This document shows, one piece after another, positions 15,062 through 33,044 of a stretch of 59,545 nucleotides of DNA (positions are counted from its first letter, which is position 1; every line of letters begins with the position of its first letter). The notes beneath the pieces were generated by a model. It worked only from the letters and a program-made list of their open reading frames with translations, had not been told where the DNA came from and ran no database searches. The stretch spans positions 1 through 59,545 of the forward strand of contig JAAEQW010000309.1 in NCBI GenBank assembly GCA_024231025.1, read 5' to 3'. The DNA is from Candidatus Omnitrophota bacterium (GTDB lineage Bacteria; Omnitrophota; Gorgyraeia; Duberdicusellales; 4484-171). A program made the translations under genes and the position numbers.

Positions 15062-15073
15062 CTAATAGTAAAT

Positions 15074-15376: not shown

Positions 15377-15384
15377 GCTACCCC

Positions 15385-15636: not shown

Positions 15637-15725
15637 GTGGTGACAATTTGATATTGAAAATCCGGGCAGAATTGGTAACATGTAAGTAAGTATTTATTTA
15701 ATCGGGGAAATAATTTTTTAAATTC

Positions 15726-17348
15726 ATGAATTCATTTGCTATCTCCTCTATTTTGGTGATTATAACCAGCTCTGTTATTGCTATTAGCCTTCTTGTAAAA
15801 AATCGGTCGTTAAAGGCTAGTAACCTCTGGGTATGCATTTCTATCTGTATAACTATCTGGGGAATAGGTGGTTATAAGGTCGCAACGACTACCAACAAGG
15901 TTGAGGCTCTTTTTTGGTGGCAATTTTCATATATGTGCGTAATATCAGCGTGTATATTTTTCACCCATTTTATTATGGAGTTTTGCCATGTAAAGAAAAA
16001 ATATTTTTTGCAGCTTATCTACCTGATGGGCTCTATTTTTATTTTTTTTACCTGGTACGATAATTCAAGCTTATTTTTAAAAGACCTGCGCTTAACGTCC
16101 GAACAATTTTACTGGACCGATTGGCTTACCAGTAAAAGCATTATATGGATAATTTTCTATATCGGGTTCTACTGGATGCTATTAGTCTACGCCTTTATTG
16201 TATTACTAAAAGAATTTACTATTTCGACCGGTAAGCGCCGCAATCAAATAAAATATTTTATTTTAGCAACTACTATAGGGTGGTTAGGAGCGCATGGTGA
16301 TCTTTTAAGCAATTTTCATCTTGATGTTTATCAATATGCCAATTACTGCATTGCGCTACACACTTTCATATTTGCTTACGCAATTATTAAGTATCAACTA
16401 CTTGACATCCGAGTTGCAATTACTCGGATTGGATTATTCTTTTTTATCTATTCGATAATTCTTGGTATTCCTTTATGGATAGGGTATCACTATCAATTAT
16501 GGATTCACGCCTTTTTGCTTCTTTTCGTATTTGCTACCATTGGACCATACGTATTTAACTATCTCAGAAAAAAAACCGAACAACTGCTTGTTGAGCAACA
16601 TCAGGTAAAATTACAAAACCTGGCTCAAGAGGAACAAATCCGTCGTCACCGCGCAATGGATCATTTCTCAAGCTCTCTTGCTCATGAAATAGATAATCCA
16701 ATGCATTCGGTTAGTGGGTTAGCTGAAGTAATCAGATTAAAGGTAACTGAAGATCTAAAAGGGCAGATATCTGAGCAGGACCAAAACTACCTACGCAGTA
16801 GATTAGGTCAATTAATAAAGGATAGTGGCAGAGTATCCAAGATGGTCAAAGCAATCAGGGAGTTTTCATCTAAAACCAGTGGTGAGCTCACTACAGTCAA
16901 AATAGATGAAGTAATCGATGCCTTCATGAGCATTGTAGGCCCTCAATTCAAAGAAGACAACATAACCTTTGAAAAGAAAATAGAAGAAAACATCCAACTA
17001 AAAGGAAATAAAATCCACCTTGAAGAAGTGCTCATGAACCTAAGCATCAACGCAATCCATGCGGTAAATAATAACAACTTAAACGAAAAGATCATTCACC
17101 TTAGAATATACCGTAACAGCCCGAAAACCTTTATGATTGAATTAGAAGACAACGGCTATGGCATAAAGCAAGATATGTTAGACGATATATTCTTAGACTT
17201 TGTAACTACTAAAGCTTCAACCGTTGGCATTGGCATGGGTCTTGCCCGAGTCAGAAAGATTGTTCAAAATCACAAAGGTAAAGTCTGGGCGCAATCTGAT
17301 GGAGCAGGCAAAGGTGGCAGTTTTTTTGTTGAGTTAGTTGGTGGGTAG
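15726..17348 (+). CDS. Membrane sensor histidine kinase with N-terminal multi-TM (HisKA_7TM-like) sensor
   Basis: About 9 hydrophobic segments; H-box LAHEIDNP; N-box NL..NA; DNGYGI; F.TTK; G.GMGL. Confidence 0.9.
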   Translation: MNSFAISSILVIITSSVIAISLLVKNRSLKASNLWVCISICITIWGIGGYKVATTTNKVEALFWWQFSYMCVISACIFFTHFIMEFCHVKKKYFLQLIYLMGSIFIFFTWYDNSSLFLKDLRLTSEQFYWTDWLTSKSIIWIIFYIGFYWMLLVYAFIVLLKEFTISTGKRRNQIKYFILATTIGWLGAHGDLLSNFHLDVYQYANYCIALHTFIFAYAIIKYQLLDIRVAITRIGLFFFIYSIILGIPLWIGYHYQLWIHAFLLLFVFATIGPYVFNYLRKKTEQLLVEQHQVKLQNLAQEEQIRRHRAMDHFSSSLAHEIDNPMHSVSGLAEVIRLKVTEDLKGQISEQDQNYLRSRLGQLIKDSGRVSKMVKAIREFSSKTSGELTTVKIDEVIDAFMSIVGPQFKEDNITFEKKIEENIQLKGNKIHLEEVLMNLSINAIHAVNNNNLNEKIIHLRIYRNSPKTFMIELEDNGYGIKQDMLDDIFLDFVTTKASTVGIGMGLARVRKIVQNHKGKVWAQSDGAGKGGSFFVELVGG

Positions 17349-17369
17349 GTGAAACACCAGCTTTCAATC

Positions 17370-17398
17370 TTGAAAAATAAGTAGGGCTGTGATAAAAT
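17370..17398 (+). promoter_or_regulatory. Sigma70-type promoter for the KS cluster (long ~160-nt leader)
   Basis: TTGAAA-17 nt-TAAAAT with extended -10 TG. Confidence 0.5.
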
Positions 17399-17565
17399 AC
17401 AGTTGTACTTAATTTTTTAAGTTCCTTTTGCTAGTTTAGCTATGGCGCATGAGTTAAGTTAAGCTGTCTGGATTATTTTTAGCTACGGAAAAATTGACGA
17501 TAACTACAGCCACGGGTGGGTCTTCGTTTTATTTTTGGTAAGTTTAATTTAGGGATGTAAATTAA

Positions 17566-18780
17566 ATGCCAGATAAGGAAGCTGTTATAAGTGGAGTAGG
17601 TGTTGTTGTTCCGGGAGCGCTTGGCAAAGATGCGTTTTGGGCATTACAAGCAGAAGGTAAAGACTGCGCCTCTTTAATCGATTCATTTCCTACCGATGAT
17701 TTCGCGGTAAAAGTTGCTTGCGAAATTAAAAATTTCAATCCAAAAGATATTCTTGGTTTTAAAGGTTTACGCAATCTTGACCGGACAACTCTTCTTTTGT
17801 TGGCTAGTTCCAAATACGCGATCAACGATGCTAATTTAGGGATTACCGATAATAATACCGACGATATTGGCGTATGCACCGGTACAACCTTTTCGCACCT
17901 TTGGTCAATTTTAGAATTTGATAAAGAAGTGTTTACCGATGGCATAGGTTTTTCGAATCCGGCTTTATTTCCATCGAATGTGATGAATGCGGCATCCTCA
18001 CACGTTTCAATTCGTTTTAATATTCAAGGTTTTAATGCAACGATTAGTACTGGGTATACTTCAGGCATTGAGGCATTAAAATATTCCACGAATGCCTTAA
18101 AAACAGGTGCGGCAAACACAGTTTTAGTTAATGGAGTCGATTCGCTAACTTATCCGGTATTCTTTGGTTTTGACCGTTTGGGTTATATGGCTGGACTGAA
18201 AGGAATTCCTTTGAGTTGTCCTTTTGATAAACGAAGAAATGGTCCAATTTTAGGCGAAGGGTCAGTTAGTCTTTGTGTGGAAAGTGAAGAAACCGCCAAA
18301 AAACGTAATGCGTCTGTTTTGGCTAGGATAAAGGGAGTAAGTACATATTTTGATAGCTCAAAAAATAGTAACGGTCTTAAAATTGCCATAGAAAGGCTTT
18401 TCGATAAAACAGGGATGGGACCTAACGATATTGATTATATATCAAGTTCGGCAAATTCATCATATATTGACAAAAAAGAGGTGAGCGCCCTCAGTAATGT
18501 TTTTGGTAAAAGGCTAAAAAATGTACCCCTGAGTTCTATAAAATCCATGTTCGGGGAAACAGTTTCCGCGTCTTCATCATTGCAAATTGCTTCGTGCTTG
18601 GGTTGCATGCAAACGGAGATGATTCCTCCGACAATTAATTATCGTGATTTTGATTTAGATTGCGATATTGATTGCGTTGCGAATAAAGCACAGAAAAAAG
18701 ATGTAAAAACCGCTTTAGTCACTTCTCTAGGGTTGGGAGGTTATAGCGCGGCGTGTATTTTGGAGAAATACCAAAATTAG
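17566..18780 (+). CDS. Ketosynthase-like chain-length factor (catalytically inactive KS)
   Basis: FabF fold (PFDKRRNG..LGEG, PPTIN); catalytic Cys region reads STGYTSG; His motifs read SSSANSS and KSMFGE. Confidence 0.85.
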   Translation: MPDKEAVISGVGVVVPGALGKDAFWALQAEGKDCASLIDSFPTDDFAVKVACEIKNFNPKDILGFKGLRNLDRTTLLLLASSKYAINDANLGITDNNTDDIGVCTGTTFSHLWSILEFDKEVFTDGIGFSNPALFPSNVMNAASSHVSIRFNIQGFNATISTGYTSGIEALKYSTNALKTGAANTVLVNGVDSLTYPVFFGFDRLGYMAGLKGIPLSCPFDKRRNGPILGEGSVSLCVESEETAKKRNASVLARIKGVSTYFDSSKNSNGLKIAIERLFDKTGMGPNDIDYISSSANSSYIDKKEVSALSNVFGKRLKNVPLSSIKSMFGETVSASSSLQIASCLGCMQTEMIPPTINYRDFDLDCDIDCVANKAQKKDVKTALVTSLGLGGYSAACILEKYQN

Positions 18781-18782
18781 TT

Positions 18783-19529
18783 ATGAGTAACTTTCAAGAT
18801 AAAACAGTAATTATAACCGGCGGTTCACGTGGAATCGGCAAGGCCTGTTGCTTGGCTTTTGCAAGGGCAGGTGCGAACATAGCGTTTACTTACAACAATA
18901 GCGCTAACGATGCAAGCCTTCTTGGTGACGAAATCAAAAAACTTGGCGTAGGTTGCATACCTTTTAAAGCTAACGTACGAGATTACAATCGATGCCGCGA
19001 TGTGGTGCGAGAAACGGTTGATAATTTTGGAAAACTCGATATTTTAATCAACAATGCTGGAATAACTAAAGATAAAGCCTTAGTTATGATGCCAATTGCC
19101 GACTGGACCGATGTTGTCGATACAAATCTGGGCGGAATTTTTAACATGACAAGAGCGGCGATCACCACGTTTTTAAAGCAAAAAGAGGGGTGCATCATTA
19201 ATATGAGCTCGATAAGTGGTATTTCAGGGTTGCCGCGCCAAACTAATTATAGCGCTTCAAAAGCGGGGATTATTGGTTTCTCTAAATCATTAGCTAAAGA
19301 GGTAGCTGCCTATAATGTGCGAGTTAATGTTGTGTGTCCCGGTTACATTAATACCGACATGGTAAATGCGTTACAAGAAAACATGCGTAATGAAATTTTA
19401 AAAAATATTCCACTGAAGCGAATGGGTGCTTCAAGTGAAGTAGCCGATCTTTGCCTTTTTCTTGCTTCTAATAAAGCATCATATATAACCGGCGAGGTTA
19501 TAAAAATAGATGGGGGCTTAGCAGTATAA
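18783..19529 (+). CDS. fabG: 3-oxoacyl-ACP reductase (FabG-like ketoreductase)
   Basis: TGGSRGIG, NNAGIT.D, NYSASKAG (YxxxK), PGYI.TDM; ATG at 18783. Confidence 0.9.
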   Translation: MSNFQDKTVIITGGSRGIGKACCLAFARAGANIAFTYNNSANDASLLGDEIKKLGVGCIPFKANVRDYNRCRDVVRETVDNFGKLDILINNAGITKDKALVMMPIADWTDVVDTNLGGIFNMTRAAITTFLKQKEGCIINMSSISGISGLPRQTNYSASKAGIIGFSKSLAKEVAAYNVRVNVVCPGYINTDMVNALQENMRNEILKNIPLKRMGASSEVADLCLFLASNKASYITGEVIKIDGGLAV

Positions 19530-19559
19530 ATAAAAATTGGCATAGCGAGAGGAGGTTTT

Positions 19560-19799
19560 ATGGGGAATAGCAATTTTGACACACTACAAAAGGAAATCAA
19601 GGAGCTCGTTGCTGAAATCGGTGAAATACCGGAAGAGGAAATAAAGGATGACTCACGTCTTGTTGAAGATTTAGGCATTGACAGCATGATGGCGCTTGAA
19701 ATTGTTGCAAAATTAGAGAAAAAGTATAAGGTTTCCATTCCCGAAGAAAAAATACCGACAATTACGTCGTTAACAAATATCTATGAGCTTTTTAAGTAG
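19560..19799 (+). CDS. Acyl carrier protein
   Basis: Acidic 79-aa protein with DLGIDSM phosphopantetheine site; GGAGG SD. Confidence 0.92.
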   Translation: MGNSNFDTLQKEIKELVAEIGEIPEEEIKDDSRLVEDLGIDSMMALEIVAKLEKKYKVSIPEEKIPTITSLTNIYELFK

Positions 19800-20226
19800 T
19801 GCTGAAATTAATAATTTATTGCCGCAAAAATACCCATTTGTGTTTGTCGATCAAGTTATCGATATCGACAAAGAAAATGGAGAGATAACTTGTTTAAAAA
19901 ATTTTTCAATTAATGATTACTTTTTTACTGGTCATTTTCCCGGAAAACCGATTGTGCCGGGGGTAATAATCGTTGAGGCTTTAGCCCAGGCAGCGATTAT
20001 TCTTTATGCGGTGCTGAAACCTGATATTGCCAAAAAGAAACCGGATTATTTTTTGGGCAAGGTGGAGGCTAAATTTGTTGGATCGGTTTTACCAGGGGAT
20101 CAATTGAATTTAATGGTAAAAAAAGAAAAATTAACCAATACTGCCGGTATTGTTGAATGTGTCGCTAAAGTTAAAGATAGAACCGTTGTGAAGGGAAGAA
20201 TCTTTTTAGGAGTTAAGGTAAAATAG
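19783..20226 (+). CDS. fabZ: 3-hydroxyacyl-ACP dehydratase (FabZ-like)
   Basis: LPQKYPF.FVD, F.GHFPG.PI.PGV...EALAQ. Confidence 0.9.
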   Translation: MSFLSSAEINNLLPQKYPFVFVDQVIDIDKENGEITCLKNFSINDYFFTGHFPGKPIVPGVIIVEALAQAAIILYAVLKPDIAKKKPDYFLGKVEAKFVGSVLPGDQLNLMVKKEKLTNTAGIVECVAKVKDRTVVKGRIFLGVKVK

Positions 20227-21434
20227 TGAAAAGCATTAAAGTTGCTGTAACAGGTTTGGGGGTAGTTTCACCAATCGGTATTGGTAAGGATGTTTTTTGG
20301 AATAATTTAATTGCGGCTAAATCAGGAATAAGTGAGATTACGGCTTTTGATACGTCTAATTATAACCGTCACTTTGGCGGTCAAGTGCATGATTTTACCA
20401 CGTCGCAATTTATACCTGGGAAAGTGGCAAAGCTCATAGGGAGGGCGTCACAATTTGCTTTAGTTGCCACGCAATTGGCCCTAGCGGATGCTGCAGTAGC
20501 TATAGATTCACTTTGTGACAGAAGAGTCGCTGTTATTATTGGAGCTACAATCCCTGAGGGAAATGTAGTTGATCAAACAACGTTAGCGATGTTTCGTAAG
20601 GAGGACGAAAGGTTTTCTGATCGAATAATATCAAGTGTCTTTGCGCCGTCAATCGCTCGTAATATAGGTAGTGTCTTGAAAATAAACGGAGCAAATATGC
20701 TAACTCCTTGCGCTTGTGCGGCAGGTAATTATGCAATTGGTTATGGGTATGATCTTATAAAAAACGGAGAAGTTGACTTGGCAATTGTTGGAGGAACGGA
20801 AGCTTTCTCGAGGATAGCATTCCAGGGTTTTCAACGATTACACGCTATGGCTGAGAACAAGGTAATGCCTTTCGACCAAAACCGTAAAGGCATGCTTTTA
20901 GGGGAAGGCGCAGGCATTTTAATTTTAGAGCCTTTTAATGAAGCAGCCAAAAGAAAAGCCAATATATACTCTGAAATACTGGGTTATGGCTTATCGTGCG
21001 ATGCCAGTCACATCACTATTCCCAAAAAAGACGGAATAAAAAAAGCCATGGCAAAAGCCCTGCGTAATTCAAATGTCAGTTCGGATAAAATTGATTACAT
21101 TTGTGCCCATGGAACTGGCACCCCGGCCAACGATAAAGCAGAATCTATCGCAATAAATGAGGTGTTCTCTTCTCGACGAGTACCGGTTAGTTCAATTAAA
21201 TCAATGATTGGCCATTGCATGGGGGCGGCATCAAGCATTGAGGCAATAACTTGCTGTTTAGCGTTGCAGAATGGAGTTGTGCCGCCAACAATTAACTTTA
21301 ACACGTCTGATCCAGAGTGCGATATAGATTGTGTGCCAAATGAGGCACGAAAACAAAATATAAAAATTGCTTTAAATAATGGGTTTGCTTTTGGTGGTAA
21401 TAATTGTTGTGTCAGCTTTAAGAGAAATAATTAA
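20226..21434 (+). CDS. fabF: Beta-ketoacyl-ACP synthase (active, FabF-like)
   Basis: CACAAG catalytic Cys, AHGTGT, KSMIGH, FAFGG. Confidence 0.88.
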   Translation: MKSIKVAVTGLGVVSPIGIGKDVFWNNLIAAKSGISEITAFDTSNYNRHFGGQVHDFTTSQFIPGKVAKLIGRASQFALVATQLALADAAVAIDSLCDRRVAVIIGATIPEGNVVDQTTLAMFRKEDERFSDRIISSVFAPSIARNIGSVLKINGANMLTPCACAAGNYAIGYGYDLIKNGEVDLAIVGGTEAFSRIAFQGFQRLHAMAENKVMPFDQNRKGMLLGEGAGILILEPFNEAAKRKANIYSEILGYGLSCDASHITIPKKDGIKKAMAKALRNSNVSSDKIDYICAHGTGTPANDKAESIAINEVFSSRRVPVSSIKSMIGHCMGAASSIEAITCCLALQNGVVPPTINFNTSDPECDIDCVPNEARKQNIKIALNNGFAFGGNNCCVSFKRNN

Positions 21435-21437
21435 AGA

Positions 21438-22517
21438 ATGAAAACAAAAATAAAACGATGCAAGCGTTGTGGCCTTGTGGAAACTTTTCCTGGAGTCGAT
21501 TTCAATAACGACCAGATCTGTAATTATTGTGCGTATTACGATTTGTATAAGGAACGTCATAATCTTATCAAAGCAGAGTTAAAAAATAAGTTCTCTAAAA
21601 TTATTCACAAGACAAAACAAAATAAAAATAAATACGACTGTATTGTTGCTTATAGCGGAGGTAAAGACAGTACTTTTCTTCTTAATTTTCTTAAGACAGA
21701 GTTTAAATTAAATATTTTGGCTCATGTTTTAGATAATAATTTTATCTCTCCATCTGCATTTAAAAATATTGATAAAGTAACGAAGGCTTTAGGTGTTGAT
21801 TGCGTAACAACAAAGCTGGACAAACAATTGTCATACGATGCTTTTACCTATGCTCTAAAAGGAAAAATCCCTTACCCTAAAGAAATCCTAGCTTTAACTA
21901 GCCCGGTTTGTGGCGTATGTATTGGTATGGTTTTAGGAAGCACCTTCAATTTAGCCATAAAACACAAGATACCAATTATGTTTATTGGCTTTACTCCGGG
22001 GCAATACCCGGCAATAAGTTTGGAAAACTTTCTTAAAGTTGAGTCGTGCATATTTACTTCGGATAAGGTGCATCGCGATGACCCGCTCGATGTACTTAAA
22101 ATATTGGCTGATCCAATTTGTGAAAAATTTGGCGATAAAGCGAGTAAATACTACTTTCGAAGTCAATATCACCATAAGGGGCTAAAAGTTCCCAGAGTGC
22201 TCTTTCCATTTCATGCATTTCTTGATTATGACGAAAAAGAAATTATTGCTGAAATTTCCAAGCTTGGTTGGGAAAGACCAAAAGATACCGACCCATGTTC
22301 TACCAACTGTTTGCTAAATGCTGTGGGAAATTACGCCTCAATGAAGCAACTTAATTATCATCCTTATATTGGCGAATTAGCTCATTTAGTTAGAGAGGGC
22401 AAAATAACGAAAGCAGAGGCATTATTAAGTGAAAAGATTGACGAAAATTCACACCCTTTGGAATACTCTTTAAAACGCTTGAAGTTAACAAAAGAGATGA
22501 TTGGTGGATCGTTATGA
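21438..22517 (+). CDS. PP-loop ATPase (N-acetyl sugar amidotransferase-like, adenine nucleotide alpha hydrolase superfamily)
   Basis: N-terminal CKRC..CNYC; YSGGKDS PP-loop; CGVC; STNCLLN. Confidence 0.75.
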   Translation: MKTKIKRCKRCGLVETFPGVDFNNDQICNYCAYYDLYKERHNLIKAELKNKFSKIIHKTKQNKNKYDCIVAYSGGKDSTFLLNFLKTEFKLNILAHVLDNNFISPSAFKNIDKVTKALGVDCVTTKLDKQLSYDAFTYALKGKIPYPKEILALTSPVCGVCIGMVLGSTFNLAIKHKIPIMFIGFTPGQYPAISLENFLKVESCIFTSDKVHRDDPLDVLKILADPICEKFGDKASKYYFRSQYHHKGLKVPRVLFPFHAFLDYDEKEIIAEISKLGWERPKDTDPCSTNCLLNAVGNYASMKQLNYHPYIGELAHLVREGKITKAEALLSEKIDENSHPLEYSLKRLKLTKEMIGGSL

Positions 22518-24148
22518 GGAATAAAGCTAATTTTCCTTGGTCTGACGTGAAAAATTTTCAAAAAGTACTAGCGGTTACTGGTCAGATTTTGGAAAATATT
22601 GACCCCGAATACTTTATTTCACCATATTCTGTAATACCTGTTATTTCGCAAATATTAGGGCTAAATACTCCGGATATGGGTGGTGGTAAATCAATCTACT
22701 CGATAACCTCAATTGTGTTTGAGCTGACAAATAAAAAAGAGCTTTTTGTCGAGCTTTTTGAAATTTCTCTGGATGAAAAACGAAAAATAATTGATGAAAT
22801 GTATGAAATGATTGCGCCAATCTTGTTGTCGGAGGAGGCTGAGTACATAGATTTATTAATAAAGGCCCGATATAAAAATGACTTGAATGATAATGCGGTA
22901 TTGATTAATGTTTTTCAAGAAGATACTAATAAAAAATTGCATATATTTGAAAAATTTGTTAAACGATTTAACACTAAAAAAGGAGATTTCGGTTATATTG
23001 TTCATTATGGTTCTTCCGGTGATTTGTATAGAGAATATCCTTTTTTAGAGAAAGTACCAGGATCTGTAGCTACAGAATGGAGAGAAAGCTCTTTTCCTGT
23101 TGTTAATGAAGTTGTTTTTGCTAATTTTCCTTCAAGTGATTTACAAACGAAAAAAACGATACGCGGTTGGGTTATTTTTATAACTAATGACACTAAAGAA
23201 CTTTTAGGAAGCTATAAACTGCGAAAAAATAAAATTATAAAAGCTGCAAAACTAGCAAAAATACTTGGGAGTAAAATAATTGGTATGGGGGGGCTGATTG
23301 CTTCTTTTGCCCAAGGAGGGCATTTTCTATCTAAAAAAATTCCCGATGTCGGCTTTACAACCGGTCACGCCTACACTATCGGTAATATTATTGAAATGAT
23401 GATAAATTGCGCAAAGAAAGTGGAATTAAGCATCGAAAATGCAACGGTTGCGGTGGTTGGAGCTGCTGGTTCTATTGGTTCAGGGTGTGCATCTCTATTA
23501 GTTTACGAAGACCCAAAAAAAATTATATTGATTGATCGAAACTCTTTTGGTGGGCGTAATAAGTTAGTTGATTTGAGCAAAATTATGAAGAACAAAAATT
23601 CCAAAATTGATATCATGGTATCTGATTCTTTAGCAGCACTAAATCAAGCTGATATTGTAATTGTTGCAACCAATTCACCCACAGCAATTATATCGTCAAA
23701 ACATTTAAAACCCGGTGCAATTGTGATCGATGACTCGTTTCCTAAAAATGTTCCCAAATCAATCATAAAAGAACGTAAAGATATAATTTTATTAGAGGGG
23801 GGAATCATGCAGTTACCCTTTTCTTTAGATATGTTTTTTGCAAGGAATATGCCAGATTTGATGGATGCCCCCTTAATTAGGATCATTAGTTGCAAGGAAA
23901 CCTACGGATGCTTTGCGGAAATTCTAGTTTTAGCATTGTCAGGGCACAAAACTAATTACGGATTAGGGCAATCGTCTCCATTTCTGGCAAAGAGAATTTT
24001 GAAAATAGCTAAAAAATTAGGGTTTATGAATGCGCCATTGCAATGCTTTAATAAGGCGACAGAAAAAGAGAGAATGTTTATAGTGAAGGAGGCAATAAAA
24101 GAAGATGGATATGCTAAAACGTATAAGGGAACGCACAGCCATACGTAA
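22514..24148 (+). CDS. Acyl-ACP reductase-like protein (aldehyde-forming family) with ~155-aa N-terminal extension
   Basis: FGYIVH, FTTGHAYT, ATVAVVGAAGSIGS, IDDSFPKN, EGG, YGCFAE; these follow the order of cyanobacterial AAR motifs, including the catalytic Cys. Confidence 0.7.
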   Translation: MRNKANFPWSDVKNFQKVLAVTGQILENIDPEYFISPYSVIPVISQILGLNTPDMGGGKSIYSITSIVFELTNKKELFVELFEISLDEKRKIIDEMYEMIAPILLSEEAEYIDLLIKARYKNDLNDNAVLINVFQEDTNKKLHIFEKFVKRFNTKKGDFGYIVHYGSSGDLYREYPFLEKVPGSVATEWRESSFPVVNEVVFANFPSSDLQTKKTIRGWVIFITNDTKELLGSYKLRKNKIIKAAKLAKILGSKIIGMGGLIASFAQGGHFLSKKIPDVGFTTGHAYTIGNIIEMMINCAKKVELSIENATVAVVGAAGSIGSGCASLLVYEDPKKIILIDRNSFGGRNKLVDLSKIMKNKNSKIDIMVSDSLAALNQADIVIVATNSPTAIISSKHLKPGAIVIDDSFPKNVPKSIIKERKDIILLEGGIMQLPFSLDMFFARNMPDLMDAPLIRIISCKETYGCFAEILVLALSGHKTNYGLGQSSPFLAKRILKIAKKLGFMNAPLQCFNKATEKERMFIVKEAIKEDGYAKTYKGTHSHT

Positions 24149-24692
24149 GTATTGCGACAAAATGGTCCCCAAGGAAATCATCGACCAAATTATACAGGCT
24201 GGAATTTGGGGTCCATCATTGATGGGTCCTGGTTTTCAACCATGGAAAATTGTTGTTGTTAAGGGTAAAGGTAATATAGAAAAAATTAACAAAATAATTA
24301 CAGAGGAATTGTGTATGCCTGGAGTTGGCAAAAATTTAATCCTCCGTACTACAATAGGTGTAATTTCAAGCGCACCGGTTGTATTTTTTGTTTATAGCGA
24401 TTCAGCCGTAATTAATTTTGTGAAAAGGCTGGATGATGGATATGAGAGTTTTGCTGATATGGCGGAAGTGTCTGCTATTTCAGCTGCAATTCAAAATATG
24501 ATACTCGTTGCAGACAGTTTAGGAGTAGGTTCATGTTGGTTAGATGCTCCTTTATTCTGTCAAAAAGAAATTAATAATTTTTTTAATACAAACCAGAAAT
24601 TAATTGCTGTTCTAACTCTAGGCTATTCTGTTAAAAAAAGTAGTCGTTCACCGCGAAAACCAATAGGCGAATCTGTGGTGTACTTTGATTGA
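24105..24692 (+). CDS. Nitroreductase-family flavoprotein
   Basis: R.R.AIRKY, GPS..QPW, AIQNMIL.A.SLGVGSCW, LGY. Confidence 0.88.
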   Translation: MDMLKRIRERTAIRKYCDKMVPKEIIDQIIQAGIWGPSLMGPGFQPWKIVVVKGKGNIEKINKIITEELCMPGVGKNLILRTTIGVISSAPVVFFVYSDSAVINFVKRLDDGYESFADMAEVSAISAAIQNMILVADSLGVGSCWLDAPLFCQKEINNFFNTNQKLIAVLTLGYSVKKSSRSPRKPIGESVVYFD

Positions 24693-26109
24693 TATGGATA
24701 ATAAATGTGACGTTGTTGTGATTGGTGCTGGAATTGGTGGGTTAACCGCTGGTTGTTATATGGCAAAATATGGTTTAAGGGTAAGTGTAATTGAACAGCA
24801 TGACAAACCGGGTGGATATTGCTCATCTTTCAGTAAAAATGGTTATCATTTTGATGCTGGAGCGCATTCGCTTGGATCTATGCGTAATGAAGGAGTAATA
24901 TCAAATGTATTGAATGATTTAGGAGTTTTAAAAAAATTTAAATACATAACTAGCGATATAACCGATAGGGTCATAATGCCAGATGAAACTGTATATGTAT
25001 ACAGAGATTCGGCAAGAACCATAAATGAGCTCAAATCATTTTTTCCAAAAGAAAGTAAGAATATTGATAACTTTTTTAAGTTTGTCCTAGAAAGCAAGTT
25101 GTTAACGCTAGTTTCAAAAACGAAATCATTAACATTTGGTGAGCTATTAAATGATTTTTTTACGGAAAAAAAACTGAAGTCAATATTGTCTGTTTTTATG
25201 GGTAATTTAGGCCTACCTCCTTCCAGAGCGTCAGCATTGGCTAGTGTAACATTATTTAAAGAGTTTGTTTTTGATGGCGGATATTACCCTAAAGGGGGTA
25301 TGCAGGAATTTGCTAACTTATTGACAAAAACTTTTGTTGATTATGGTGGAAAAATAACGCTATCCACTAAGGTTGTGGAAATTATGACTGAGAGGAATAG
25401 AGCTGTCGGGGTACGGACTAATCATAATGATCATATTAAATCTAAAGTTGTTTTGTCTAATGCCGATGCGACGACTACTCTCAATAAGATGGTAAAAAAT
25501 ACATCTTCAAAATTAACGTTTCGGAGATTACAGCCATCGATTTCAGCATTTGCGGTTTATTTAGGTATCAACGATCGATTAAAAGACGTCCCAAGGCACT
25601 TAACAACATGGTTTTTTTCGACATATGATATAGACAAATGCTATAGTCCGCAACCACACATCGCTGACATTGATTACTTAATTTGCAGTCTTCCATCGTT
25701 GGTCGATGACTCTATCGCTCCGAAAGAAAAAAATGCAATACGAATAATGATTGCTGCTAATTATGAAACGACTGATACATGGAATGCTAGAAAAGACTTT
25801 GTATCGTCAAAGCTATTAAAAAAATTAAACAATCTAATTCCGAATGTGATAAACTGTATAGAAGTAAAGGAAATCGCTACCCCTTGTGCATTTGCCAAGA
25901 TTACATCAAATAGGTCTGGAGCACTTTTTGGGTGGGCTGCAACTAAAGATCAGATTGATATGTGTCACTGTCCATCTGATACTCGATTTAAAAATTTATA
26001 CCTAACGGGTCACTGGGTTACCAAGGGTGTTGGGCAGTCAAGCATTCCTCTTGTTATTCTTTGTGGGAAAAATGCCGCTAAAAAAATTATAAGAAATATA
26101 AAGTCATGA
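24685..26109 (+). CDS. Phytoene desaturase (CrtI)/retinol saturase-like FAD oxidoreductase
   Basis: DVVVIGAGIGGL, EQ...PGG, G..FD.G, YPKGG, E.ATP, NLYL.G. Confidence 0.85.
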   Translation: MIDMDNKCDVVVIGAGIGGLTAGCYMAKYGLRVSVIEQHDKPGGYCSSFSKNGYHFDAGAHSLGSMRNEGVISNVLNDLGVLKKFKYITSDITDRVIMPDETVYVYRDSARTINELKSFFPKESKNIDNFFKFVLESKLLTLVSKTKSLTFGELLNDFFTEKKLKSILSVFMGNLGLPPSRASALASVTLFKEFVFDGGYYPKGGMQEFANLLTKTFVDYGGKITLSTKVVEIMTERNRAVGVRTNHNDHIKSKVVLSNADATTTLNKMVKNTSSKLTFRRLQPSISAFAVYLGINDRLKDVPRHLTTWFFSTYDIDKCYSPQPHIADIDYLICSLPSLVDDSIAPKEKNAIRIMIAANYETTDTWNARKDFVSSKLLKKLNNLIPNVINCIEVKEIATPCAFAKITSNRSGALFGWAATKDQIDMCHCPSDTRFKNLYLTGHWVTKGVGQSSIPLVILCGKNAAKKIIRNIKS

Positions 26110-28217
26110 ATATACTCAGTATTTTAGGCACAGTAACTGCAATAACGAATTTTGGTATATCTATTTTTGTACTTTTCCGTTTAAAAAATAGTACTCATGT
26201 GCGTGTATTTGCGGCTATTGCGCTGGCAAGTGGTGTATGGGGATTAGCCGGTGCAGTTTTCTCGACTATACCAAAGGAATCACATGATTTGGCTATGTTT
26301 TGGTGGCAAGTTGGGTACACTGGAGCGATACTTACAGTTCCGTTTTTTTTACATTTTATTGCTTCTTATTTGAAATTGGACAACCAAAAAAATGTCATAA
26401 GAATAGTTTATTTTTTATCTTTTCTCTTTTTATTTTTTAATTGGTTTGATAGGTCGAGTTTGTTTATTGGTGATTTACAATTTGTATTCGGTAAATTTTA
26501 TTGGGGGGATTGGTTTAAGCGCAGAGGCGTAATTTGGTTGATTTTTTACATAGGTTTTTATTGGATAATATTGGGTTATTCTTTTATTTTGCTGGTTAGG
26601 GGGTATTTGAAGTCGACAGGAATGTTGAGAAATCAGCTTAAATATTTCATGCTCGGGTCAATTATAGGATGGTTAGGGGCAGAATTTCAATATTTACCAA
26701 CATTACGAATTTACATTTTTCCTTACTCTATGCTTCTTATAGGTGTATATCCAGCCATATGGGCTTATGCAATCATAAAGTATCACCTTATGGACATCCG
26801 AGTTGCAATTACTCGTGCCGGAATATTTTTAACTATTTACACAATTGTTATTGGCCTGCCTCTGTGGTTTACATATCAATTCGGAGGGCATTTTTGGGCG
26901 GTATTGTCGATGGCGATATTAGCATTGGCGGGACCATTTATTTACGATCATCTTCGTCAACGAGTTGAACGAATTCTTTTGCGCAGGCAAATGGAACACC
27001 AGCTCGCCATTCGTGAGTTTGCCGAAGCATTAACAAAGATAAAACAGCTAAATATGATTTTCAGTAAAATTAAATTAAAAATGGAGGAGATTGTAGGACC
27101 TGAATTTATTGGAATATACACATTTTCTAGAACAACCAATGCCTACACATTAAAAGAAGAGCATTCAACGGCGGATTACAAACTTAATCGCGTAATTAAA
27201 AAAGATTCATCACTAGCGCGAGTTTTTAACGAACTTCGCCAACCAATATTTTCTGAACTTTGTGATGATAAGTGCCTTGGTGATGCCGCTCACGAAACAA
27301 TGATTATCCCGTTTTATGCCGAAGGTAGCTTGTTTGGATTCATTGTCCTTGGTCCGAAAATGGAAAATAATCCCTATACGCTAGATATATATGTTCAACA
27401 AGACGTTGGTATTTTTGAAATACTTTCCAGTCAGATATCACTAGCAGTGGAGAACTGTCTTTTCTGGAGAAGTGAAAAAATTCGTGCCATGAAGGAGGAG
27501 CAAATCCGTCGTCAAAAAGCAATGGATCACTTTTCTGCATCACTGGCCCATGAGGTTGATAATCCAATCTTTACCGTACAATGCACTGCTGAGCTTCTAA
27601 AGGAAACTTTGGTGGAAGAGTGTTCCCAGCACCTCCAACAAGAAAAACTAACGCCACTAACCGGTGAATTAGATAACATTATAACGAGTATTAAGCGTAT
27701 TTCGCGCATTGTGAAATCAGTGCGGGAATTTTCGGCCCAGACTGATGGTGAGTTTACAGAAATATCGATGAATGATGTGGCTTATAGCTTTACAAGCATC
27801 TTAGGGCCGCAAGCTAAGTATGACGGTATAATATTTGAAAAGCATATTGAAAGCGATATATTTGTGAATGGGAATAAAATCCATTTGGTTGAAATTTTTA
27901 TGAATTTGGCAGTAAACGCGTTGCATGCGGTAAAGAATCATACTGGTAATGATAAAAAAATTATCTTCTCTATCGCTAAAACAGATAAAGACAAATGCTT
28001 AATAAGTCTTGCCGATGATGGCTACGGCATTGACGAAGATTTAGCCGGCGATATATTTTTAGATTTTGTAACAACAAAACCGCCTACTGAAGGAAGTGGA
28101 ATGGGTCTGCCGCGAGTAAAAAATATGGTTGAAAAGCATGGTGGTAAAATTTGGTTTGAGTCAAAAGGAAAAGGAAAGGGTACTACCTTTTTTATTGAAC
28201 TACCACTATTAAATTAA
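26106..28217 (+). CDS. Membrane sensor histidine kinase (multi-TM + GAF-like + HisKA + HATPase)
   Basis: Paralog of 15726..17348 with an added GAF-like block (IIPF...LFGFIVLG.K); LAHEVDNP; DDGYGI; GSGMGL. Confidence 0.9.
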   Translation: MNILSILGTVTAITNFGISIFVLFRLKNSTHVRVFAAIALASGVWGLAGAVFSTIPKESHDLAMFWWQVGYTGAILTVPFFLHFIASYLKLDNQKNVIRIVYFLSFLFLFFNWFDRSSLFIGDLQFVFGKFYWGDWFKRRGVIWLIFYIGFYWIILGYSFILLVRGYLKSTGMLRNQLKYFMLGSIIGWLGAEFQYLPTLRIYIFPYSMLLIGVYPAIWAYAIIKYHLMDIRVAITRAGIFLTIYTIVIGLPLWFTYQFGGHFWAVLSMAILALAGPFIYDHLRQRVERILLRRQMEHQLAIREFAEALTKIKQLNMIFSKIKLKMEEIVGPEFIGIYTFSRTTNAYTLKEEHSTADYKLNRVIKKDSSLARVFNELRQPIFSELCDDKCLGDAAHETMIIPFYAEGSLFGFIVLGPKMENNPYTLDIYVQQDVGIFEILSSQISLAVENCLFWRSEKIRAMKEEQIRRQKAMDHFSASLAHEVDNPIFTVQCTAELLKETLVEECSQHLQQEKLTPLTGELDNIITSIKRISRIVKSVREFSAQTDGEFTEISMNDVAYSFTSILGPQAKYDGIIFEKHIESDIFVNGNKIHLVEIFMNLAVNALHAVKNHTGNDKKIIFSIAKTDKDKCLISLADDGYGIDEDLAGDIFLDFVTTKPPTEGSGMGLPRVKNMVEKHGGKIWFESKGKGKGTTFFIELPLLN

Positions 28218-28223
28218 ATAAAA

Positions 28224-29824: not shown

Positions 29825-29845
29825 AAAATGCTCTTATAGTTTGAT

Positions 29846-30062: not shown

Positions 30063-30602
30063 ATGAAGAATATAGGGCAAAAAATTCGTCTTCTGAGGCA
30101 GAAAAAAAATCTGGCATTAAAGGATTTAGCTGAAAAAACTGGTCTTTCTTCGAGCTTTTTATCGCAATTGGAGAAAGGATTAACCCTTCCCTCGGTTGAC
30201 TCATTAAGAAAAATCGCACATGCGTTATGTACAACTGTAGGGAATTTCTTTGATGAGACTGAATCTAAAGAGTTTGTTTTTATAAAACATCAGCAAAAAA
30301 ATCCTCCCGATCCAATATCTAATTATGAGATACTGGCTTCAAGCGTTTTGGACATAGGTATGTTGCCGATGATGCTTAGGCTCAAGCCAAAAGAAGTTTT
30401 AACCGCTGATAAATGTCCTCAAGGTGAAGAAATGTTGGCAGTAATAGTGAAAGGCGAAATAGTAGTAAGAGTTAACGAAAAAGAATTTAAACAGACTGCC
30501 GGTGATAGTCTTTATCTTGTGCGACCCCGTTTTCAAAGCATTGAAAACGGCGGTCAAAAGGATGCCGCGGTGCTATGGACTATTTTAAGACAAAACGGAT
30601 AA
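30063..30602 (+). CDS. XRE-family HTH + cupin transcriptional regulator (PuuR-like architecture)
   Basis: IGQKIR.LR..LAEKTGLS.SFLSQLEKG...PS; C-terminal cupin GEE....KG, GDS. Confidence 0.88.
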   Translation: MKNIGQKIRLLRQKKNLALKDLAEKTGLSSSFLSQLEKGLTLPSVDSLRKIAHALCTTVGNFFDETESKEFVFIKHQQKNPPDPISNYEILASSVLDIGMLPMMLRLKPKEVLTADKCPQGEEMLAVIVKGEIVVRVNEKEFKQTAGDSLYLVRPRFQSIENGGQKDAAVLWTILRQNG

Positions 30603-30605
30603 ATC

Positions 30606-31055
30606 ATGCCTGCAAAAAAAAATTACAGCAATAAATCAAAATCTGCATCATTCGATAATGACTGGGGCAAAAAGGAACATTCATCAGACACCGAACGAAG
30701 GTTGCACCCACGAATAAAAGACAGAATTTTTGTTTTCGGTTGGACCGCAAACGAACCGATAACTTTAGTGGAGGGTATAACAAATAACTTATCTGTTGGG
30801 GGAGTATCATTCGATACCAATGTCGAAATTAAAAAAAATAATGTGTTGTGGCTTGAGATATATTTGCCTAGCGACTACCGAAAGCAGATTCTAGAATCGC
30901 TTTACCTAAAAGCTCGTGTGATATGGAGAAAAGCTCTAAAAAACGAAAAAGGGTCAAATAAATATCGCATTGGTTTACGATTTGAAAATGTTGCCAAAAA
31001 AGAACTCAAGATGCTTACGCGTTATGTTGAGGACGGGTTTACCAGCCGAAAATAA
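30606..31055 (+). CDS. PilZ-domain (c-di-GMP-binding) protein
   Basis: ERRLHPR (RxxxR) and NLSVGG (D/NxSxxG); ARVIW; IGLRF. Confidence 0.85.
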   Translation: MPAKKNYSNKSKSASFDNDWGKKEHSSDTERRLHPRIKDRIFVFGWTANEPITLVEGITNNLSVGGVSFDTNVEIKKNNVLWLEIYLPSDYRKQILESLYLKARVIWRKALKNEKGSNKYRIGLRFENVAKKELKMLTRYVEDGFTSRK

Positions 31056-31062
31056 TTGTTTA

Positions 31063-31566
31063 ATGGAAGACCTTAAAAAATTTGAAATCTTAATTGTTGA
31101 AGACGAAAAGGAGCTTTGTGCCGCGTTAAAGCAAGTTCTTTCAAAAAATCATCGTTGCTGTGTTGATACAGCCTTCTCGGTAGATCAGGCATTTGCCGCT
31201 ATCGATCAAAAGGAATATGCCTTAATATTATGCGACTACAAGCTTGGTGAAGAACGAGACGGACTGGATATATTGTTTCATGCTAAAGCAAAAAACCCTC
31301 ATATCATCACCATCCTAATGACTGGCTATGGAACCGCGACTTTAGCAACAAGAGCGGTTGCTGAAGGCGTTTACGACTATATAACCAAACCATTTAAAAG
31401 CATTATGGATGTTCGAAATGTTGTAGATAGGGGATTGAACTACTACTCCCTTTTAATTCGTTACAATAAAAAAGTTAAAGATGCCACTATTCAAAAAGAA
31501 CTGCTGAAAGAAACTCTACTAAAAGTGAAACGAACCGAAGAAATCCTAGATAGTCTTACTGAATAA
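31063..31566 (+). CDS. Response regulator receiver protein with short C-terminal helix
   Basis: ILIVEDE, LCD (phosphoacceptor), MTG, YITKPF; ATG at 31063. Confidence 0.88.
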   Translation: MEDLKKFEILIVEDEKELCAALKQVLSKNHRCCVDTAFSVDQAFAAIDQKEYALILCDYKLGEERDGLDILFHAKAKNPHIITILMTGYGTATLATRAVAEGVYDYITKPFKSIMDVRNVVDRGLNYYSLLIRYNKKVKDATIQKELLKETLLKVKRTEEILDSLTE

Positions 31567-31675: not shown

Positions 31676-31748
31676 GCCGGCGTAGCTCAGTTGGCAGAGC
31701 AGGTCATTCGTAATGATCAGGTCGAAGGTTCGACTCCTTTCGCCGGCT
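31676..31748 (+). tRNA. tRNA-Thr(CGT), CCA not encoded
   Basis: Acceptor GCCGGCG/CGCCGGC; D-arm GCTC..GAGC; anticodon stem GGTCA/TGATC with loop TTCGTAA; T-loop TTCGACT. Confidence 0.95.
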
Positions 31749-31763
31749 TTAAAAAATATATCT

Positions 31764-33044
31764 ATGTTAGTTGCCTACTTTAAAATTTTACGAAAAAGAA
31801 ATTTCTTTTGCCTTTGGTTCGGGCAGATAGTATCGCAATTTGGCGATCGCCTTACCCAAATGGCGCTAATCGGTCTTGTTTACAAACTCCAACATGGTGT
31901 TTCTCCGCTAGGGCTATTTAAAATGATGAGTTTAGCTATAATTCCGGTTTTTTTATTCTCTCCTGTAGCCGGAGTGTATATCGACCGTTGGGACAAGCGA
32001 CGCACGATGTACGTAAGCGATCTCATTAGGGCCCTGTTTATCTTTCTAATCCCTTTACTCTGTTTTCGTTTTAAATCTTTAGGTCTAGCGTATGTTTTCA
32101 TTTTTCTGTCGTTCTCAATGGGCAGATTCTTTATACCAGCTAAAATGGCAATGATCCCATCAATTGTGCCGAAAAAAGATCTCTTAGCGGCAAATTCTCT
32201 AGTATCCGTTACCGCCATGATTGCCGCTGTGCTTGGTTTGGGTTTTGGTGGTATGATAGTCGAAAAATGGGGAGTTAAAACAACTTTTTACCTGGATTCT
32301 TTAACTTTTATTGTTTCGGGAGTGTTTATTTACCTGATATCGATGAAGGAAAATACCCATTTTCACGCTAAAGATCTATTGGATATGAGTAAAGACGCCT
32401 TGGAAACAGTTAAAAATTCAGTTATATTTGAGCTAAAAGAAGGCATTCAGTATATTGCTAAGTCTCCGGAAACGAAATATGCCATAAAGGTAAAAATCAC
32501 ACTGTTCGCGATTATTGGAGCACTATATACAGTTTTTATTGCTTTTATACAGGAAGCTCTATCCACAATTACTCTAGAACTGGGCTGGCTTGCGGTAGGT
32601 GCTGGTGGAGGGCTTTTTGTTGGAACAATACTCTATGGCCGGTTCGGTAAGAAATTATCGGTAAACAAAACAATAAGCCTTTCGCTATTGCTAAGCAGTG
32701 CCCACTTGATCTTTTTTACCTCAGTATTGCGTTGGCATCCTTGGAAAATGTTTGCTTTTATATCTTGTGTAATTTTAGGTATTCTTTGTTCTCCAATTGA
32801 AATTGCAATAACCACTTTTATCCATAAAAAAACTAAGAATGAATTTTTAGGACGCATATTCAGTTCAATAGAGGTAGTACTTCATTTAACACTTCTTATA
32901 TCAATGGGAATTTCATCTTTGCTGGCAGAACTAATGACACCCTTTACAATTATCTTAACTGTGGGCATAGTAATGTTTCTTTTTTCGCTAAAAAATTTAT
33001 TAACCGATAACGGAAATTTACATGATACACGTAGAAGAACATAA
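31764..33044 (+). CDS. MFS transporter (DHA3/macrolide efflux-like)
   Basis: LWFGQ.VSQFGD, AGV..DRWDKRR.M..SD, ~12 TM; the 31713 start overlaps the tRNA, so 31764 is used. Confidence 0.88.
   Translation: MLVAYFKILRKRNFFCLWFGQIVSQFGDRLTQMALIGLVYKLQHGVSPLGLFKMMSLAIIPVFLFSPVAGVYIDRWDKRRTMYVSDLIRALFIFLIPLLCFRFKSLGLAYVFIFLSFSMGRFFIPAKMAMIPSIVPKKDLLAANSLVSVTAMIAAVLGLGFGGMIVEKWGVKTTFYLDSLTFIVSGVFIYLISMKENTHFHAKDLLDMSKDALETVKNSVIFELKEGIQYIAKSPETKYAIKVKITLFAIIGALYTVFIAFIQEALSTITLELGWLAVGAGGGLFVGTILYGRFGKKLSVNKTISLSLLLSSAHLIFFTSVLRWHPWKMFAFISCVILGILCSPIEIAITTFIHKKTKNEFLGRIFSSIEVVLHLTLLISMGISSLLAELMTPFTIILTVGIVMFLFSLKNLLTDNGNLHDTRRRT

Follow-up and report, generated by a model that had tools for sequence, protein, structure and literature searches.

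Why should an operon of lipid-type biosynthetic genes be enclosed by two paralogous membrane-bound histidine kinases (HKs)? The question is raised by contig JAAEQW010000309.1 of a Candidatus Omnitrophota metagenome-assembled genome (MAG; assembly GCA_024231025.1, 2.5 Mb, 401 contigs, 93% complete, labelled G000 below). Positions 1-59,545 of this contig are referred to as the window; the island itself covers positions 15726-28217 of the + strand. An initial annotation, made from the sequence alone, read the island as a 'make-and-sense' system in which the kinases detect a lipid-derived molecule made by the genes between them. Here, we find that kinases of this family accompany lipid-type enzymes well beyond the window, that the invariant part of the biosynthetic genes is a PP-loop enzyme paired with an enzyme resembling both acyl-(acyl carrier protein) reductase (AAR) and the putative terminal amidation domain (TAD), and that the chain-building genes have known relatives. 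The reading we favour, with a probability of about 0.45, is a self-monitoring loop in which intramembrane sensors would read and tune a specialised lipid pathway.

Organization of the island

The island holds eleven genes, namely HK1, nine packed biosynthetic genes and HK2. Their positions, families and tight packing were confirmed as annotated by means of open reading frames (ORFs), Pfam and NCBIfam. They are listed here with their lengths in amino acids (aa) where these matter.

15726..17348, + strand: HK1, HisKA_7TM sensor histidine kinase, 540 aa (Pfam HisKA_7TM 52.5 bits, HisKA, HATPase_c; 305 bits to our own 7TM hidden Markov model, HMM)
17566..18780, + strand: dead ketosynthase (KS), chain-length-factor-like (CLF) and amxFabFmut-like (Pfam ketoacyl-synt N and C domains; PDB 9s5h_C 269 bits)
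18753..19529, + strand: 3-oxoacyl-ACP reductase, a FabG-like ketoreductase (KR) (TIGR01830 303.7 bits, over the cut-off of 297.75)
19560..19799, + strand: dedicated acyl carrier protein (ACP), amxACP-like (PP-binding; top PDB matches 7qv0_D, 7auf, 9s5i_E)
19783..20226, + strand: 3-hydroxyacyl-ACP dehydratase (DH) FabZ, amxFabZ-like (FabA-like domain; top PDB matches 7qv0, 8ayb, 8ayc, 8ayi, 8ayd)
20226..21434, + strand: active KS, amxFabF2-like (Cys-His-His kept; 438 bits to 9s5h_B)
21438..22517, + strand: PP-loop ATP pyrophosphatase, NASAT/QueC-like (TIGR03573 128 bits over the full length, SGGKDS)
22514..24148, + strand: AAR/TAD-like thioester-processing enzyme, 544 aa, with an orphan helical N-terminal domain (profile and Foldseek matches to AAR and TAD)
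24105..24692, + strand: nitroreductase-family flavoprotein, optional tailoring (PF00881 84 bits)
24685..26109, + strand: CrtI/amine-oxidase-like FAD oxidoreductase (Amino_oxidase 76.6 bits; crtI_fam 175 bits, under the cut-off of 238)
26106..28217, + strand: HK2, HisKA_7TM sensor kinase, 703 aa, with a GAF-like insert (Pfam HisKA_7TM, HisKA, HATPase_c)

From the CLF gene to HK2 neighbouring genes overlap or lie apart by -44 to +31 bp, and the operon runs into HK2 through a 4-bp overlap with the CrtI-like gene, as had been stated. A promoter and terminator scan of 15000-31800 gave fewer sites than shuffled sequences did (48 vs 58.6, and 9 vs 13.4) and yielded no operon boundaries; its sole notable sites lie at 17370-17398 and 29993-30020. 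The housekeeping FabG-ACP-FabF set of the genome is found on a different contig.

The two ketosynthases are indeed one dead and one active enzyme. In a pairwise alignment with the active KS, which keeps Cys-His-His, the CLF has lost the whole catalytic triad (Cys to Tyr, His to Ser, His to Glu). Pfam and NCBIfam matches together with this alignment bear out the layout of KS-CLF, KR and DH lacking an enoyl reductase (ER) that is characteristic of highly reducing type II polyketide synthases. ER, FabD, FabH, thioesterase and transporter genes are absent from 15726-28217 by Pfam and NCBIfam. This agrees with the annotation inside the island, which had also reported no exporter, with the correction that an MFS transporter gene lies outside it at 31713-33044. 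The absence of ER from the island is compatible with an ER acting in trans, or with a CrtI-like protein that works as a reductase.

The PP-loop and AAR/TAD-like pair as invariant core

Relatives of the 544-aa protein were gathered from genomes and metagenomes, and the window proteins were mapped onto those loci. A PP-loop gene stands directly upstream of the AAR-like gene at all 15 of the orthologous loci that have upstream sequence, and an ACP gene is present at most of them. The chain supply, in turn, differs from locus to locus: some have the full KS/CLF/FabG/FabZ set and three (L022, L023, L097) a lone KS; in L002, a spirochaete MAG, the KS/CLF set is replaced by FAAL, a fatty-acyl-AMP-ligase-type enzyme; and in L015 no chain-building gene is seen, and a FeeM-like GNAT N-acyltransferase is encoded close to the core. 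Neither the nitroreductase nor the CrtI-like gene is obligatory, the former occurring at five other distinct loci. The invariant core of these loci is thus the PP-loop plus AAR/TAD-like pair. In one otherwise syntenic cluster an IS200-like (Y1_Tnp) transposase gene sits between the KS and PP-loop genes (L014 8639-9313, with L016 as its duplicate).

Orthologues of the 544-aa protein are rare, being found in 4 of 401 sampled Omnitrophota genomes. The family comprises about ten full-length representatives at 50% identity, and the superfamily 509 representatives at E <= 1e-30. By sequence profile, the protein matches AAR (6jzq, E 2.8e-24), the N-terminal domain of PigE (4ppm) and TAD (9e4x). Its AlphaFold model (pLDDT 87.7) was compared with solved structures by Foldseek, in which residues ~160-530 match the TAD of the carmabin pathway (9e4s, E 3.5e-19) and a cyanobacterial AAR (6jzu, E 3e-18). 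The 'acyl-ACP reductase homolog' of the initial annotation is therefore, as modelled, as close to TAD as to AAR; the AAR match itself stands, including the catalytic Cys. This residue aligns with the AAR Cys mutated in 6jzz (C294S according to the entry title) and is nearly invariant in 23 relatives. Model scores are below the cut-offs for both the cyanobacterial AAR (TIGR04058, 84.1 bits vs 449.7) and PigE (120.7 bits vs 850). No aldehyde-deformylating oxygenase is recognisable in the window by Pfam, the rest of the genome not having been searched for it.

The end of the second Rossmann strand carries a nearly invariant Asp in the 544-aa family, as in TAD, where AAR has Thr-Ala-Arg. An Asp at this position favours NAD(H) over NADPH by a textbook rule, and for this reason the sequence suggests that the 544-aa enzyme prefers NAD(H). 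The first ~155 residues are modelled as a helical domain without detectable relatives, an Atlas search with residues 1-165 giving no usable match. A search among longer proteins for AAR-like fusions gave one PigE-like protein and no kinase fusion, which is weak evidence. Among ten long relatives examined, three are fused to PilZ and three to PlsC-type acyltransferases. For TAD, a preprint proposes that the acyl group passes to the Cys and leaves it as a primary amide; there the nitrogen source is described as unknown, and NAD synthetase genes are said to adjoin a few TAD clusters (10.1101/2024.10.28.620694).

The PP-loop protein carries SGGKDS and, towards its N-terminus, CxxC...CxxC, along with additional invariant Cys motifs. 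It aligns with TIGR03573, the model of N-acetyl sugar amidotransferases (NASAT), over the full length at 128.2 bits, under the cut-off of 203.2, and its structural neighbours in the Atlas bear NASAT, QueC-like or PP-loop names (TM-score 0.77-0.86). NASAT is defined by two motifs, the PP-loop SGGXDS and a tetracysteine, and is thought to convert an amide to an amidine using ammonia (PMC10607449). Both motifs are present in the island protein, but the residue before the third Cys deviates from the published pattern. That the PP-loop partner is obligate hints at nitrogen (or sulfur) chemistry at the chain end. The sequences suggest that the core pair acts on the end of an ACP-bound chain by nitrogen chemistry, to give an aldehyde, amide, amidine or nitrile. 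The extra cysteines possibly indicate sulfur chemistry instead.

In a distant subfamily (L032), the AAR-like gene is followed by a PP-loop gene of another type, NadE. At this locus (L032 2-2325) an ORF consisting of HisKA_7TM without a kinase ends 8 bp before the 378-aa AAR-like gene, and the NadE-type NAD synthase gene comes next. This arrangement suggests that the membrane domain may work with the enzyme even without a kinase.

Linkage of the core pair to HisKA_7TM sensors

ORFs were scored with HMMs built for the membrane domain (alignment A4) and for the AAR-like family (A2). A HisKA_7TM ORF lies downstream of the AAR-like gene on the same strand at 14 of 20 orthologous loci: the window, L001, L013, L015, L018, L019, L021, L022, L023, L027, L029, L030, L031 and L097. 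The count of 20 leaves out L016 and L017 (duplicates of L014 and L013) and L028 (unreadable), and includes the near-identical L019 and L030; L014, L020 and L025 end within ~1 kb, too early for the sensor to be judged. The AAR-like and sensor genes overlap by a few bases at seven loci, an overlap of 4 bp being frequent. The sensor gene of L001, full-length at 724 aa, closes an extended operon and lies 9.5 kb downstream.

In 41 related genomes, a HisKA_7TM match lies no more than 2.5 kb downstream on the same strand at 13 of 22 AAR-like loci, and four of the nine unlinked loci run off their contigs. These genomes are kin, and the counts are accordingly not independent. Taken together, the two counts mean that homologous clusters do not usually lack the kinases. 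Distant AAR-like subfamilies (~25-35% identity) are linked as well (L034, L035, L098, L099, L101 and a second locus of the source genome, G000:C332). At these loci the place of the PP-loop enzyme as partner is taken by PlsC-type acyltransferases, an SRPBCC fusion, a FadE-like dehydrogenase or a FAR-like reductase. The initial annotation had tied the biosynthesis to the multi-transmembrane (TM) kinases; what persists from locus to locus is the tie to AAR-like and other lipid enzymes, not to the KS/CLF set.

Within G000, the sole CrtI-like gene and both AAR-like genes adjoin three of its six HisKA_7TM genes. Several paralogous sensors surround one pathway in the window, L013 and L097. The link of biosynthetic genes to multi-TM kinases is thus not due to chance.

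Some of these loci have peculiarities of their own. G000:C332 (L102 6293-13435, - strand) contains a zinc-ribbon-like ORF, a methyltransferase, a 421-aa AAR-like gene, a 691-aa kinase and then three receiver-only genes, ending in an unassigned 257-aa ORF. In L097 (4175-8343, - strand), the two sensors after the AAR-like gene are of the form HisKA_7TM + GAF + HD, with no kinase, and the first appears to be split into ORFs of 96 and 587 aa by a frameshift or assembly error. In L002 (4411-7359, - strand), a divergent 7TMR-DISM hybrid kinase-receiver-SpoIIE phosphatase gene lies 1.1 kb upstream of the ACP, PP-loop, AAR-like and FAAL genes.

Census from the sensor side

The same association was approached from the sensors, by taking upstream DNA for nearly all of the 78 HisKA_7TM matches in the 41 related genomes. 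A same-strand ORF lies within 200 bp upstream of 64 of 76 HisKA_7TM ORFs. By BLAST against the query set, these 64 include 14 CrtI-like, 6 AAR-like, 5 KS and 2 B12 radical SAM genes; the remaining matches are to 7TM kinases (3), receiver-containing proteins (3) and, weakly, FAAL (1). Pfam was run on 60 of them, leaving out two kinases, one 80-aa fragment and one further ORF, and returned Amino_oxidase (13), the FAR-like 'male sterility' acyl reductase (6), methyltransferases (6), ketosynthase (5), an AAR-type NAD domain (5) and receiver (3). The CrtI-like family is the commonest upstream neighbour by either method (14/64 and 13/60). Judged by these domain matches, lipid-type enzymes are the largest group upstream of HisKA_7TM genes. 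Ten upstream ORFs, mostly from the unmatched group, were scanned singly and include a CMAS-like methyltransferase, an aldehyde dehydrogenase, a GMC oxidoreductase and a class I/II aminotransferase. The aminotransferase gene (L132 736-1935, - strand) is directly upstream of its HisKA_7TM gene; its superfamily presumably includes the CqsA/LqsA autoinducer synthases.

Three of the enzymes directly upstream of HisKA_7TM genes carry signalling domains themselves: a receiver-HMG-CoA reductase (L114 2098-3657), a receiver-PilZ-methyltransferase (L118 1837-3579) and a PilZ-methyltransferase (L107 712-2061). Receiver and PilZ domains on enzymes indicate that the enzymes are at least partly signalling outputs, and this favours a self-regulating loop over a cell-to-cell signal of the CqsA/CqsS type. 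Thus, of the make-and-sense proposal, the linkage of enzyme and sensor is retained, and its signalling analogy is less well supported than self-regulation.

The sensor kinases and their signalling neighbours

HK1 and HK2 are paralogues, as annotated; their membrane parts are 38% and their kinase cores 49% identical, and by NCBIfam they resemble known kinases in the catalytic core only. HK2 has an extra cytoplasmic, GAF-like segment of ~160 aa; HK1 has no GAF. The model of HK2 residues 1-300 (pLDDT 87) is an all-helical membrane bundle with short loops only. Such loops leave no place for an external ligand-binding domain, and the cue is therefore expected inside or at the membrane. Conserved residues of the HK2 membrane part are W45, P206, Y221 and D230. 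Foldseek matches of this model to G-protein-coupled receptors were weak (best E 4e-3, TM-score <= 0.5) and are not read as homology. Of 26 neighbouring sensors, 24 carry PF16927, the HisKA_7TM domain, in two an HD domain stands where the kinase would be, and 13 contain GAF. The papers found to mention HisKA_7TM list it as a sensor domain and no more, and our literature search found no ligand or cue for PF16927.

Downstream of HK2 there are three genes that may belong to the same signalling set, and the MFS gene mentioned above.

30063..30602, + strand: HTH_3 + cupin regulator, probable member of the signalling set (Pfam; homologues near kinases at other loci)
30606..31055, + strand: PilZ-domain protein of the cyclic di-GMP (c-di-GMP) receptor type, tentative member (Pfam)
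30970..31566, + strand: receiver-only response regulator, candidate phosphoacceptor (Response_reg at residues 40-143, no output domain; true start probably after 30970)
31713..33044, + strand: MFS transporter (MFS_1/MFS_3), possible exporter with a weak link to the island (Pfam)

Homologues of the HTH-cupin gene stand beside kinases at L019, L021, L029 and L102, where the second AAR-like/7TM locus of G000 is located. In L015, a PilZ gene is directly upstream of the ACP, PP-loop and AAR-like genes. Receiver-only genes accompany the kinases at most loci, and HD-GYP-type and PilZ proteins also recur. The MFS gene has no homologue at the other loci mapped, and in L097 FtsX and ABC genes lie upstream of the PP-loop gene.

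Relatives of the chain-building genes

The closest solved relative of the active KS is 9s5h_B (438 bits), followed by the ishigamide KS 6kxd (328 bits) and then by FabF enzymes. For the CLF, 9s5h_C ranks first (269 bits) and FabF enzymes come next, not Iga12. A 2026 preprint describes the crystal structure of amxFabF2/amxFabFmut from the putative ladderane 'Cluster I' of anammox bacteria, in which the pair acts as a KS/CLF-like heterodimer, and gives the cluster as an ACP, FabZ, a pair of FabF homologues, a homologue of phytoene dehydrogenase and a B12 radical SAM enzyme (10.64898/2026.05.19.726425). We take PDB 9s5h to be this structure, a presumed and unconfirmed match, as the code is absent from the text of that preprint. 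The protein in entries 7QV0 and 8AYB-8AYI is amxFabZ, specific to anammox bacteria, either alone or together with amxACP (PMC10139942). Thus, going by sequence rankings, the best solved relatives of the island KS, CLF, FabZ and ACP would be anammox Cluster I proteins, and the chain-building half is not new.

The initial annotation knew of no characterised cluster with this combination. That statement was too strong, because the fatty-acid-synthesis-like set is homologous to the partly characterised Cluster I, whose product is supposed to be a structural lipid. 'Ladderane' clusters predicted by antiSMASH, with function unknown, had already been flagged and found expressed in Omnitrophota MAGs (10.1101/2022.12.20.521206). 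One relative, L001, is nearer to Cluster I than the island is, with three B12 radical SAM genes, a methyltransferase and two CrtI-like genes. The second of these CrtI-like genes (L001 19584-21034) is broken into ORFs of 95 and 387 aa.

A proposed self-monitoring loop

How could these parts work together? Starting from the observed gene content, active-site status, homologies and conserved linkage, we infer the chemistry of each step, the ligand and the way in which control runs, as follows. The amx/'ladderane'-type KS/CLF with FabG and FabZ would build a chain, probably short and unsaturated, on its own ACP. The AAR/TAD-like enzyme would load this chain on its catalytic Cys and release it in an NAD(H)-dependent manner as an aldehyde, possibly as an amide. 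Its PP-loop partner could adenylate the carbonyl and add nitrogen, yielding an amide, amidine or nitrile, or possibly add sulfur. The nitroreductase-family and CrtI-like flavoproteins may set the oxidation state. Within the membrane, the helical bundles of HK1 and HK2 would read the hydrophobic product or a bilayer property altered by it, and the kinases would signal back to the pathway via receiver-only regulators, PilZ/c-di-GMP components and the HTH-cupin factor. That the product is a polyene or an aldehyde is a guess.

Several points weigh against this reading. HisKA_7TM is absent at L002, L024 and L026 despite at least 1.8 kb of downstream sequence, and the L002 genome has eight HisKA_7TM genes elsewhere. 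Among the related genomes without an AAR-like match, 11 of 23 still hold HisKA_7TM genes, so that the sensor family is not tied to the AAR-like enzyme alone. In the census, 30 of the 64 upstream ORFs match no BLAST query, and the singly scanned ones include non-lipid types (generic methyltransferases, the aminotransferase). Gene calls in the relatives come from a simple ORF caller. The window contains no acyltransferase to place the product into a membrane lipid, and the cytoplasmic GAF-like segment of HK2 could be the real sensor. Finally, synteny fits both a sensor that reads the product and a sensor that controls the enzyme for another reason.

Other explanations

The best-surviving alternative is an open loop, in which HK1 and HK2 would sense an unrelated cue, such as temperature, envelope stress or a cytoplasmic metabolite through GAF, and merely switch a lipid-remodelling operon, the linkage being one of regulator and target. 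The receiver- and PilZ-fused enzymes directly upstream of sensors look like such targets, half of the neighbouring sensors have GAF (13/26), and HD-GYP-type outputs and PilZ proteins connect the loci to c-di-GMP networks. There is also a precedent in DesK/DesR beside des, where a kinase adjoins its lipid-enzyme target; but the cue of DesK is itself altered by the enzyme, which makes the precedent a closed loop. Moreover, it is the membrane bundle and not GAF that is common to all variants, HK1 lacking GAF and L032 having a 7TM-only ORF beside its AAR-like gene. For a membrane-buried sensor behind lipid enzymes in dozens of operons, a lipid would be the simplest cue. We consider the open loop unlikely.

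Cell-to-cell signalling, in which HK1 and HK2 on neighbouring cells would detect a diffusible lipid-derived autoinducer made by the operon, fares worse and is in our view improbable. Synthase-kinase operons are well precedented (CqsA/CqsS, LqsA/LqsS, RpfF/RpfC, PhcB/PhcS, agr-type), and the order synthase-kinase(-receiver) is conserved here. The multiplicity of paralogous sensors around one pathway, the rare and patchy distribution of the cluster, and the occurrence of sensors without the enzyme, like receptor 'solos', would also fit. Reductive or amidative release would yield a free molecule rather than a glycerolipid, transporters are close by (MFS in the window, FtsX + ABC in L097), and an aminotransferase of the superfamily that we take to include CqsA precedes one sensor elsewhere. 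Against this, no window gene belongs to a known synthase family (CqsA/LqsA, RpfF, PhcB, LuxI) by Pfam or NCBIfam, and the MFS gene is not conserved at other loci. Related enzymes fused to receiver or PilZ domains would be controlled by signalling and not be signal producers. The great variety of enzymes next to the sensors, KS and HMG-CoA reductase among them, fits membrane-lipid homeostasis better than it would an autoinducer family, and the chain-building genes have their homologues in a cluster presumed to make a structural lipid.

A bolder form of the sensing idea, which we hold to be about equally improbable, is a modular lipid-signal code: HisKA_7TM proteins would be receptors for membrane-soluble lipids, each paralogue being tuned to the product of its upstream enzyme. 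The pathway would then make a new class of N- or S-terminated unsaturated lipid through a hitherto undescribed PP-loop plus AAR/TAD-like release system, and this lipid would signal between ultra-small, probably host-dependent Omnitrophota cells or to their hosts.

A purely structural lipid cluster, that is, an Omnitrophota version of the anammox ladderane-type pathway with functionally unrelated kinases, would account for the anammox relatives of KS, CLF, FabZ and ACP, for the Cluster I-like additions in L001 and for the expressed 'ladderane' clusters of Omnitrophota, but is very improbable, as the sensor linkage recurs far beyond chance, persists without KS/CLF genes and holds even for L001, which ends in a full-length HisKA_7TM gene.

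Other genes of the window and the genome

Convergent with HK2 on the - strand, a speD-speE-speD operon (28224-29790) has two S-adenosylmethionine decarboxylase genes around a spermidine synthase gene. It was considered as a supply of polyamine acceptors and rejected, having no homologue near the cluster at any other locus; the operon is probably unrelated to the island. A radical SAM gene at 13292-14953 was likewise rejected as the missing Cluster I enzyme, since it is of the Radical_SAM_N2 type with DUF2344 and sits behind rodA. The segment concerned (10408-15376) encodes PBP2, RodA, the Radical_SAM_N2-type protein and a short DUF2344 ORF of 122 aa, which may be truncated or miscalled, as it matches only the first half of the 176-position model. 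Positions 33022-38167 encode a complete Rnf-type complex (RnfC, D, G, E, A, B), after which comes an RseC/MucC-like gene. Elsewhere in the same genome, G000:C327 (L105) has a second adjacent pair of KS-like genes with SDR and B12 radical SAM genes nearby, possibly another lipid cluster.

Significance and comparison with known systems

Layouts that place a synthase next to a kinase, or a kinase next to a lipid enzyme, are already known kinds, and so is the amx-type, fatty-acid-synthesis-like half of the island. As far as our literature searches reach, two features are new: the obligate PP-loop plus AAR/TAD-like pair, and the general pairing of the orphan sensor family HisKA_7TM with lipid enzymes. 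Literature searches for this combination returned nothing relevant, and no paper found described an association of lipid enzymes with HisKA_7TM. This family is widespread in bacteria and archaea, and the neighbourhoods reported here offer it a candidate class of cue (lipids) together with named enzyme-sensor pairs. For amidation in the AAR/TAD superfamily, the PP-loop partner and the AAR-like + NadE pair of L032 point to a candidate nitrogen-supplying enzyme. Among 'ladderane-like' clusters outside anammox, one is here part of a regulatory circuit, and this speaks for a specialised lipid under regulation.

Anammox Cluster I and the island both pair an active KS with an inactive one, and both have an ACP of their own, FabZ and a CrtI-like gene (the phytoene-dehydrogenase homologue). 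They differ in that Cluster I includes a B12 radical SAM enzyme, whereas none is found between 15726 and 28217 by Pfam, and in that the island adds FabG, the PP-loop enzyme, the AAR/TAD-like enzyme, the nitroreductase and two sensor kinases to the cluster as described in the passages seen. The highly reducing type II system of ishigamide (Iga11/Iga12) has the same KS-CLF, KR, DH and ACP set without ER in the cluster, and Iga11 (6kxd) is the second-best solved relative of the island KS; its release chemistry is different.

For the core pair, AAR and TAD share with the 544-aa protein the two-domain fold and the catalytic Cys, and TAD also the common second-strand Asp. In contrast to both, the 544-aa protein has an extra helical domain of ~155 aa, an obligate NASAT/QueC-like PP-loop partner and sensor-kinase neighbours. 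TAD forms the C-terminus of a nonribosomal peptide synthetase module in four of five sequence similarity network clusters, whereas the 544-aa protein stands alone; discrete proteins make up 'Cluster 4' of the TAD preprint. The PP-loop protein differs from NASAT (WbuX/WbpG/LpNASAT) in its extra Cys motifs and in being surrounded by ACP-linked lipid genes, not O-antigen genes. The MAP branch of prodigiosin biosynthesis resembles the island in combining an AAR-like thioester-reductase-type domain (the PigE N-terminus) with a flavin amine-oxidase-family enzyme (PigB, which we take to belong to that family); the island, unlike this branch, has no aminotransferase domain and no PigD.

Lastly, the lipid quorum-sensing pairs and DesK/DesR-des are similar to the island in having a lipid enzyme beside a multi-pass kinase with no external sensor domain. 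The synthase families of the quorum-sensing pairs are missing among the island genes, and the sensor domain of the island is PF16927. DesK has five TM segments and a HisKA_3 dimerisation domain, in contrast to the island kinases, which combine PF16927 with PF00512.

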